Of a DNA stretch of 64,000 bases, positions 19,326 through 19,834 are shown piece after piece (position 1 is the first letter of the stretch; each line of letters starts with the position of its first letter). The DNA lies in assembly GCF_030013595.1 (NCBI RefSeq), contig NZ_CP122768.1; one strand, written 5' to 3'. Under the pieces are notes generated by a model. The model saw only the letters and a list, made by a program, of their open reading frames with translations, was not told the DNA's origin and did not search any database. The position numbers and the translations under genes were made by a program. This stretch comes from Escherichia coli (lineage in GTDB: Bacteria > Pseudomonadota > Gammaproteobacteria > Enterobacterales > Enterobacteriaceae).

Positions 19326-19423
19326 AGCTACCTCGATACTCTTTCTATCGTTGGTGGTTAGAAGCCCCGTTACTGCTCCAACAGTGCGGGGTTTCGTCGT
19401 TTCTGTGCCTTGCATTAACAAGG

Positions 19424-19505
19424 TGTAAGACACAATGTAAAATACAAGTGTCTTACACGTCAAGCCTTCAAAATAATTTTTTTTCGTGTATATTGTCTTA
19501 CACCA
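19424..19505. promoter_or_regulatory. Divergent promoter region with three copies of the palindromic operator GTGTAAGACAC / GTGTCTTACAC
   Basis: Copies at 19424-19434, 19449-19459 (inverted partner) and 19495-19505, overlapping a TATATT -10-like element for the rightward gene. Confidence 0.6.
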
Positions 19506-19525
19506 ACAACATAAGGAGTTAGACA

Positions 19526-19704
19526 TGGCAACAGGTCCAAAGAATGCAAAATCACAATCTGTAACTGCACGTATTGCCCATGAAATTATTGAAGGCATGG
19601 AAAACGTGAAAGAAGAAGGCGAAAGTACAGGGCAGTTTATAAGTGCAGCCATGCGCGGCGAGATCAAACGCCGCCAGCGCCGCAAGGCCAAAGAGCAGGA
19701 ATAG
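19526..19704 (+). CDS. Small ribbon-helix-helix-like DNA-binding protein (candidate repressor)
   Basis: 59 aa from MATGPKNAKSQ; predicted beta-strand (QSVTARI) then two helices; AGGAG ribosome-binding site; divergent from the island operon. Confidence 0.5.
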
Positions 19705-19806
19705 CCCACCAGCAAGCCAGCACACTGATCACATTGCCAACCGGATGTAATCACGGCATAGTAATCATCTCTCTTGCGTTGGGGATAACGCGCAATTAGT
19801 GTTGAA

Positions 19807-19834
19807 GGGCCACCGTAGCGGGTGGCCTTTTCTT
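19807..19834 (+). terminator. Rho-independent terminator of the RHH gene
   Basis: GGCCACCG-TAGC-GGGTGGCC hairpin followed by TTTTCTTT. Confidence 0.6.

Follow-up and report, generated by a model that had tools for sequence, protein, structure and literature searches.

We analysed a stretch of 64,000 nucleotides of the Escherichia coli contig NZ_CP122768.1 (assembly GCF_030013595.1; the whole stretch is referred to as the window), in which a small gene coding for a ribbon-helix-helix (RHH) protein of the YlcI/YnfO family is transcribed away from a leftward operon in an island of the phage satellite type. The RHH gene occupies 19525..19704 on the + strand (ATG at 19525, stop at 19704), encodes 59 amino acids (aa) and is preceded by the Shine-Dalgarno (SD) sequence AAGGAG at 19513-19518, 7 nt 5' of the ATG. 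Its intrinsic terminator (19804..19831, +) begins 100 nt after the stop and consists of an 11-bp G+C-rich stem, GAAGGGCCACC-GTAGCG-GGTGGCCTTTT, followed by TTTTCTTT, and a second terminator is located at 19928..19955 (+), just before the 3' end of the convergent gene alpA. On the other side, the leftward operon starts with an Icd-like gene (19122..19325, - strand; NF033153, 70.4 bits). The original prediction, made from the letters of the window, had described a 59-aa plus-strand open reading frame (ORF) with its own terminator, divergent from the leftward operon, and both the ORF (ATG 19525-19704) and the stem (19804-19831) were found as described; the intervening 120 bp that it gave had to be corrected, the divergent intergenic region being 199 bp long (19326-19524).

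Three putative operators are located in this region. S1, GTGTAAGACAC, at 19423..19433 (+), extends over the end of the -10, and over the +1, of the candidate leftward promoter. S2, at 19448..19458 (-), reads GTGTCTTACAC on the + strand, is the exact reverse complement of S1, GTGTAAGACAC, 14 bp apart from it, and lies inside the spacer of the leftward promoter, abutting its -35. S3, at 19493..19503 (-), reads TTGTCTTACAC on the + strand (10/11 matches), shares 2 bp with the end of the -10 of the RHH promoter, includes its +1 and stands 22-32 nt 5' of the RHH ATG. The candidate for the leftward promoter (19434..19463, -), which would drive the Icd-like/helicase operon, has the -35 TTGACG (19463..19458), an 18-nt spacer and the -10 TACATT (19439..19434), and the candidate for the rightward promoter of the RHH gene (19467..19494, +) has the -35 TTCAAA, a 16-nt spacer and the -10 TATATT. 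The strongest promoter-like match on the + strand, at 19415-19443 (10/12), was set aside because its hexamers fall in locus-variable sequence.

With one mismatch or fewer to GTGTAAGACAC, no matches other than the three sites occur in the 64 kb (0.6 expected), and the three fall within 81 bp; with up to two mismatches no additional operator copy was found elsewhere in the island. The sites have the form (G)TG-N5-CAC, 11 bp, with palindromic GTG/CAC ends around an asymmetric 5-bp core; thus the operators, which had been called palindromic, are so at their ends but form no full palindrome. The inverted pair with 14 bp between the two sites was reproduced exactly (19423-19433 and 19448-19458), and the third copy exists (19493-19503, 10/11) but overlaps the -10/+1 of the RHH promoter and not the start codon.

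To compare this arrangement, 62 loci from one scan of species-representative genomes were used, plus the locus of a capsid-forming phage-inducible chromosomal island (cf-PICI) and that of EcCICFT073, the prototype of the phage-inducible chromosomal islands (PICIs) concerned. The 85 bp 5' of the RHH gene align without gaps in nearly all loci. S3 is located at -32..-22 from the ATG, directly after a TATACT-type -10, and most loci have TATACT, TATAAT or TATATT as the -10 there. S2 is located at -77..-67, directly before GTCAA, the complement of an opposite-strand TTGAC -35; a -35 of the form TTGA[C/A/G] abuts S2 in 59 of 59 distinct loci, with TAnnnT 17-18 nt on, and S1 stands just past this leftward TAnnnT, at about -102, or at about -112 in one group. 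Thus, S2 fills the leftward spacer, S1 covers the leftward -10/+1 or the early transcribed region, and S3 covers the -10/+1 of the RHH promoter. By column entropy the TG...CAC ends and the promoter hexamers are invariant, and the 5 bp of the core that they surround are hypervariable; this N5 core differs among loci and matches among the sites of one locus: S2 and S3 differ by 1.65 mismatches within a locus and by 3.88 between loci (0/10,000 permutations). S1 is inverted relative to S2 and S3 in the window; across the specificity classes it is inverted relative to S2 in some and direct in others, and both orientations occur within class QQLNA, which fits independent binding of one symmetric dimer per site.

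The 59-aa protein was assigned by NCBIfam to the uncharacterised YlcI/YnfO family NF041551 (66.8 bits, cutoff 30), a name that PGAP also gives to homologues in E. coli genomes, and by PHROGs to phrog_949, of unknown function. Pfam gave no match to the protein even at E up to 10 and no significant family for 39 homologues, of which one touched RHH_1 (E = 0.017), and the Pfam RHH models do not place the protein in the MetJ/Arc/CopG group. Sequence searches of the PDB, with the single protein and with a profile, returned nothing, and tblastn against 50,697 phage genomes found no relative; therefore, this RHH subfamily is not a phage gene. The homologue family is small (113 clusters at 90% identity; 89 representatives among 1.84 billion), and its named hosts are Enterobacterales, plus Gilliamella. 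Within E. coli, the region is matched in 1,256 of 5,426 complete genomes.

In the predicted structure we observed a β-α-α fold with an N-terminal strand, as in the RHH superfamily, and an intertwined dimer with a two-stranded antiparallel β-ribbon. The turn at the start of helix B, G32-E33-S34-T35, corresponds to the G-x-S/T/N turn of RHH proteins, and its E33 and S34 are invariant in the 39 homologues; in the homologue alignment N7, S10, R16, K29, E33, S34 and F38 are invariant, the tail is basic and residues 11-15 are variable. The structural matches of the model include single-chain Arc (among the top), omega, ORF56 and TraM/TraY, and many of them are DNA-binding domains of antitoxins (CopA_SO, HicB, TacA, MazE, RelB). 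The model thus supports an RHH DNA-binding protein of the YlcI/YnfO family, assigned by fold and not by membership of a sequence profile.

Indeed, the variable residues 11-15 of the β-strand vary together with the operator core. In the window the strand QSVTA goes with the core TCTTA, and in other loci QMTTV goes with AAATA, KKLEA with TCAGC, QQLNA with AATCG, QALKA with TGGCC, KRFDV with TCGGA, QKLQA with GACTC, QKIHA with TGTTC, QTLAA with TTGAA, QQIVS with AATGC, and LQVSV with AACAC; altogether the specificity classes number at least 17. The RHH gene and the operators are adjacent, so that descent alone could link them, and therefore each residue was tested separately. Across 25 β-strand classes the core varies with residues 12 and 14 (0/5,000 permutations as extreme, for each), the mean core distance being 1.0 where both residues are identical and 3.46 otherwise, and it does not vary with residues 11, 13 and 15 (p = 0.16, 0.59 and 0.34). 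Such an every-second-residue pattern is not produced by simple linkage by descent, and the alternation of 12 and 14 is as would be expected of base readout by an RHH ribbon: in the RHH model, the hydrophobic positions 13, 15 and 17 point into the protein core, and positions 12 and 14 point, together with the invariant R16, towards the DNA. In Arc, Q9, N11 and R13 face the DNA.

A partial code can be read from the classes, in which Q12, and likewise M or L12, goes with AA at core positions 1-2, E14 with AGC, Q14 with CTC or TTC, and K14 with G(C/T)C. Taken together, the indirect evidence for sequence-specific binding at the repeated operators is strong, and the fixed positions over both divergent promoters and the covariation of the core with residues 12 and 14 bear out the earlier call of these repeats as (putative) operators. 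When genomes with several copies were characterized, RHH/operator classes differed among co-resident satellites in 6 of 7 multi-copy genomes with copies in distinct contexts (multi-locus genomes: L005/L023/L045; L025/L040/L053; L019/L039; L044/L055; L022/L056; L026/L049), which is compatible with immunity groups and not significant given the class frequencies.

Directly left of S1 we found a conserved two-hairpin RNA element (19321..19409, +) whose last stem, followed by a T-rich tail, resembles a terminator; the element is complementary to the 5' untranslated region, the SD and the start codon of the Icd-like gene. Its G·T wobble pairs occur on the + strand only in almost every locus, its fold has z = -5.2 on the + strand and -2.1 on the - strand, and RNAalifold gave -27.5 kcal/mol for the + strand, where 15 of the 22 pairs show compensatory changes, and -5.2 kcal/mol for the - strand. 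When a covariance model built on 36 loci, the window itself also being among the input, was run against 29 further sources, 28 of them, including EcCICFT073, had a single copy each, without exception on the strand that codes for the RHH protein; K-12 DLP12 had none. The element thus always accompanies the RHH module. A copy in a related locus is, for example, L064 767-857 (-). A TAnnnT hexamer precedes the element by 4-11 nt in both first-gene types. Rfam gave no family for it, and C4/isrK was found neither at the gathering threshold in the window nor at E up to 1-5 in 18500-20500 and 19290-19420. On its conserved, strand-specific pairing the element is a good candidate for a cis-antisense RNA.

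One locus, L042 of Xenorhabdus japonica (~4870-5000), is the only one without the segment of S1, S2 and the leftward promoter, and there the RNA element stands directly against an S3-like site; L042 may be a deleted or rearranged switch. The island also codes for a ProQ/FinO-domain protein at 15846-16388 (-), with 64.6 bits for FinO and 57.8 bits for ProQ, both below the curated cutoffs, and the cf-PICI of E. coli O177:H21 has one as well. RNA chaperones of the ProQ/FinO type bind terminator hairpins of antisense RNAs, and its presence is suggestive in view of the RNA element. A link between this protein and the antisense RNA element was considered and judged weak, a ProQ/FinO homologue being present in just 2 of 51 flanks.

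The whole island is about 10.0 kb long (12047..22053), is bounded by 26-nt direct repeats (12047-12072 and 22028-22053) and lies beside tRNA-Pro(ggg) (22172-22248). Leftward from the tRNA it contains a tyrosine integrase (20721..21962, -), alpA coding for a helix-turn-helix (HTH) protein (19987..20193, -, convergent with the RHH gene), the RHH gene on the + strand, the leftward operon, the ProQ/FinO-domain gene and further ORFs; in the operon, DUF4222, 66-aa and 121-aa ORFs stand between the Icd-like gene and the gene of a RepA-type helicase/primase (16855..18270, -). The organisation is the same as that of EcCICFT073 and has the features of Gram-negative PICIs, namely about 10-15 kb at a dedicated att site, int, alpA and primase/helicase, and no lysis or tail genes. 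The island is therefore best described as a PICI-type phage satellite. In the flanks of the compared loci an integrase lies beyond the RHH gene on the opposite strand in 43, and relatives of AlpA and primase are present in many.

In EcCICFT073 the RHH gene is C_RS30120 (NC_004431.1 1380473-1380652), divergent from the Icd-like gene; it belongs to class QALKA and is accompanied by GTGTGGCCCAC twice plus S3, a specificity that differs from that of the window. The locus tags of EcCICFT073 are recent PGAP additions, and Fillol-Salom 2018 (PMC6092414), in which helper-phage induction and packaging were shown for EcCICFT073, another island than the one in the window, does not mention its RHH gene. 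According to that study, it is 'unclear' whether Gram-negative PICIs have a global repressor, and AlpA, whose gene is induced by helper phages, activates the island genes and its own gene; hence the premise of the original prediction, that such islands are described as relying on AlpA and lacking a dedicated repressor, agrees with the literature. Open-access literature on YnfO/YlcI, DUF3950, RHH proteins in PICIs, a master repressor together with AlpA, and a repressor of EcCICFT073 contained no functional report, and the repressor in PMC11773190 is a different one, PerC/ANR-like. In the cf-PICI of E. coli O177:H21 a copy of the region is 92.5% identical. Its AlpA (L001 9958-10146) is the same as that of EcCICFT073 (L065 3026-3214; WP_000953274.1), whereas its RHH protein and operators are of the window's class TCTTA and those of EcCICFT073 of class TGGCC; therefore, AlpA and the RHH module reassort independently.

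Starting from what was established in silico for the fold, the site architecture and the protein-DNA covariation, we infer binding, the direction of regulation and a link to AlpA, and we consider it likely that the RHH protein is an autoregulated repressor of the early/replication operon of the satellite, at the position that Stl holds in the Staphylococcus aureus pathogenicity islands (SaPIs). In the proposed mechanism, the antiparallel β-ribbon of a dimer (residues 10-18) would enter the major groove at each 11-bp site, where the invariant Arg16 probably reads the invariant GTG/CAC ends and residues 12 and 14 would read the N5 core. Occupation of S2, in the spacer and at the -35, and of S1, at the -10/+1, would block RNA polymerase at the leftward promoter and keep the Icd-like/helicase operon, and with it early expression and replication, silent; occupation of S3 over its own -10/+1 would result in negative autoregulation of the RHH gene. 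The near-consensus -10 and the good SD of the RHH gene are as expected of a constitutive, self-limited repressor. The many orthogonal specificities would allow co-resident satellites to be controlled independently. On this sequence evidence, the gene may well be the 'master switch' of the island that the original prediction proposed.

How the repressor would be released is a more tentative part of the proposal. No - strand terminator was predicted between alpA and the leftward operon, and both hairpins 3' of the RHH gene have T-runs on the + strand; therefore, AlpA-dependent transcription could run antisense across the RHH gene into the operon. Such read-through from the alpA side would bypass the repressed promoter and interfere with RHH expression, and it would reconcile a repressor with the published AlpA dependence; another route of anti-repression may serve instead. 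Between int and alpA there are two terminator-like hairpins at 20270-20357 (-), so that a separate promoter is expected for alpA. The hairpins could be targets of antiterminators of the AlpA type.

Several points weigh against repression by the RHH protein. The promoters are consensus matches, the leftward -10 agreeing at just 3-5 of 6 positions and the rightward -35 poorly. The centre distances, 25 bp for S1-S2 (22-35 bp elsewhere) and 45 bp for S2-S3, are no integral helical turns, which puts cooperativity between the sites in doubt. The covariation statistics rest on related loci. An RHH protein at these positions could in principle activate instead of repress, and the published AlpA-only model explains induction without a repressor (PMC6092414).

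One alternative is that the protein binds the three sites but acts as a Cro-like or late regulator that shuts the early operon after induction, or as an activator or architectural factor of the leftward promoter. The evidence on the sites fixes binding and neither its sign nor its timing, the weak rightward -35 might mean that expression of the RHH gene itself needs activation, and silence as well as induction have been explained by AlpA alone (PMC6092414). However, the spacer and the -10/+1 are classical positions of repression, the near-consensus -10 and the good SD fit a constitutive repressor that limits itself, and the divergent position matches Stl/Rpr; we therefore regard this alternative as unlikely.

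An accessory role in copy-number control, partition or packaging, CopG-like, as an omega/ParG-like centromere binder, or associated with cos as in YlcI, is less probable still. RHH proteins do fill such roles, as omega, ORF56 and TraM/TraY among the fold matches illustrate; the operon facing the RHH gene contains a helicase/primase, and K-12 YlcI stands beside cos and nohD. There is, however, no ParA-type partner, the sites coincide with promoter elements and form no array, BLASTP gave no local alignment to YlcI and the window has no cos-like context, and CopG-like control, being repression of a promoter, would overlap with the autoregulated repressor that we favour.

The gene had alternatively been proposed as an antitoxin-like element, with a cognate toxin to be sought among neighbouring ORFs; the Icd-like division inhibitor would be one candidate for the toxin. 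Although many of the fold matches are antitoxin domains and the first gene of the regulated operon codes for a putative cell-division inhibitor, we consider a toxin-antitoxin pair very improbable. The RHH gene is monocistronic and ends in its own terminator; in 36 of 42 loci no co-directional ORF of at least 40 aa follows it, and those in the other loci are unrelated. No conserved downstream ORF emerged, and the 57-aa ORF C_RS30800 of CFT073, considered in the search for a toxin partner, is absent from the window. The C-terminus is a basic tail only, with no toxin-binding extension, so that neither the co-transcribed toxin nor the toxin-binding C-terminus of type II antitoxins was found, and the Icd-like gene is divergent and in many loci replaced by an unrelated first gene. 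That the ORF and the repeats are functionless chance features, as the shortness of the ORF, the lack of a Pfam match and the lack of literature might suggest, can practically be dismissed, chiefly because about 60 other loci show the same conservation and covariation: homologues throughout Enterobacterales retain the invariant residues, and the sites stand in register and change in concert.

Further, we can extend the proposal of an autoregulated repressor to a wider model, in which the RHH protein is the missing master repressor of Gram-negative PICIs and cf-PICIs including EcCICFT073, with at least 17 orthogonal protein-operator pairs serving as 'immunity groups' under a two-residue code, assisted by a cis-antisense RNA across the first early gene's ribosome-binding site, and overridden by helper-induced AlpA through antisense transcription across the RHH gene. 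In this full form the model is speculative and has, in our estimate, roughly a one-in-three standing. How Gram-negative PICIs stay silent is an acknowledged gap (PMC6092414), for which the RHH protein is a testable candidate. The module occurs not only in EcCICFT073 and cf-PICIs but also in the satellites of many enterobacterial genera, and the proposal is the first functional hypothesis for the YlcI/YnfO family. Moreover, a natural RHH-operator series in which two residues predict a 5-bp core would be useful in the study or design of orthogonal small repressors and of PICI-based delivery vectors.

Other features were observed away from the switch region. Near the left island end there is an iteron-like array (12913-13146), with three 39-nt repeats, spaced 65 and 126 bp apart, that contain 3-5 copies of TTGACACTTTTT(CGCG); the array could represent an origin, a packaging site or a series of late promoters. 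A 58-65 aa ORF at 15187-15384 (-), MRKASVKPVLLARDQIEALQRIQDEE...SIHEVARRLMQRAL, has a strand-helix-helix-like pattern and lies upstream of a 197-aa and a 217-aa ORF; it matches nothing in Pfam or NCBIfam and may encode a further small regulator, one that serves the island's late part. Upstream of rplY, at 25964-25989 (-), Rfam RF03131 (46.9 bits) marks the leader of ribosomal protein L25, which is ordinary host sequence.

Among known systems, YlcI (DLP12) and YnfO (Qin) of K-12 give the family its name and are likewise small with an N-terminal strand-helix-helix pattern; NF041551 applies to YlcI (37.6 bits) as it does to the window protein (66.8 bits). YlcI differs in belonging to a lambdoid late region without the S1-S3 architecture and the antisense RNA element. 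Its gene (L066 5252-5446, -, K-12 DLP12) is divergent from nohD, coding for a terminase small subunit, with a lambda-type cos between them, and this context hints at a packaging-related or late-region role for the YlcI subfamily. To carry this cos/nohD context over to the RHH protein of the window was rejected, the similarity being at profile level only with no BLASTP alignment.

The CI RNA of P4 and the C4 RNA of P1 are, like the RNA element of the window, immunity elements of a satellite or phage at an icd-type gene, and C4/isrK matches have been found in some Gram-negative PICIs (PMC10111431); the window has no C4/isrK match at E up to 1, and its RNA element is on the strand opposite to the operon. 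CopG of pMV158 is a 45-aa RHH protein that represses the promoter of its own replication operon. Its gene shares a transcript with repB, and it binds cooperatively to a single pseudo-symmetric element, whereas the gene in the window is divergent and its sites are discrete. Omega of pSM19035 (inc18) recognises a short asymmetric repeat that may be direct or inverted, as S1 flips in the family of the window, but its sites are contiguous 7-bp heptads in arrays of 7-10, in contrast to three 11-bp sites 22-45 bp apart, and omega also serves partition.

Arc and Mnt of phage P22 (immI) are small RHH dimers with three alternating β-ribbon residues (Q9/N11/R13 in Arc; 12/14/R16 in the window) that repress divergent or overlapping promoters and autoregulate, as the RHH protein of the window would. 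They show no detectable sequence similarity to it; Arc binds as a tetramer on two adjacent half-sites, unlike the three separated 11-bp sites over two promoters, and the operon that would be regulated in the window is the replication module of a satellite and not ant. An analogue in genetic position is the master repressor Stl/Rpr of SaPIs and Gram-positive PICIs, which is divergent from the excision/replication operon, has many allelic specificities, binds the intergenic region and keeps the island silent, as the RHH protein would; the RHH gene is likewise divergent from a replication operon, with putative sites over the divergent promoters. The analogy is one of genetic position only and not of homology, the fold in the window being RHH and not HTH: Stl/Rpr are large HTH proteins that are inactivated by helper-phage proteins and are co-directional with int, whereas the 59-aa RHH protein is encoded convergently with alpA and int. 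The protein would be a new repressor-type RHH member in a role not described for Gram-negative PICIs, with an unusually clear natural series of specificities.

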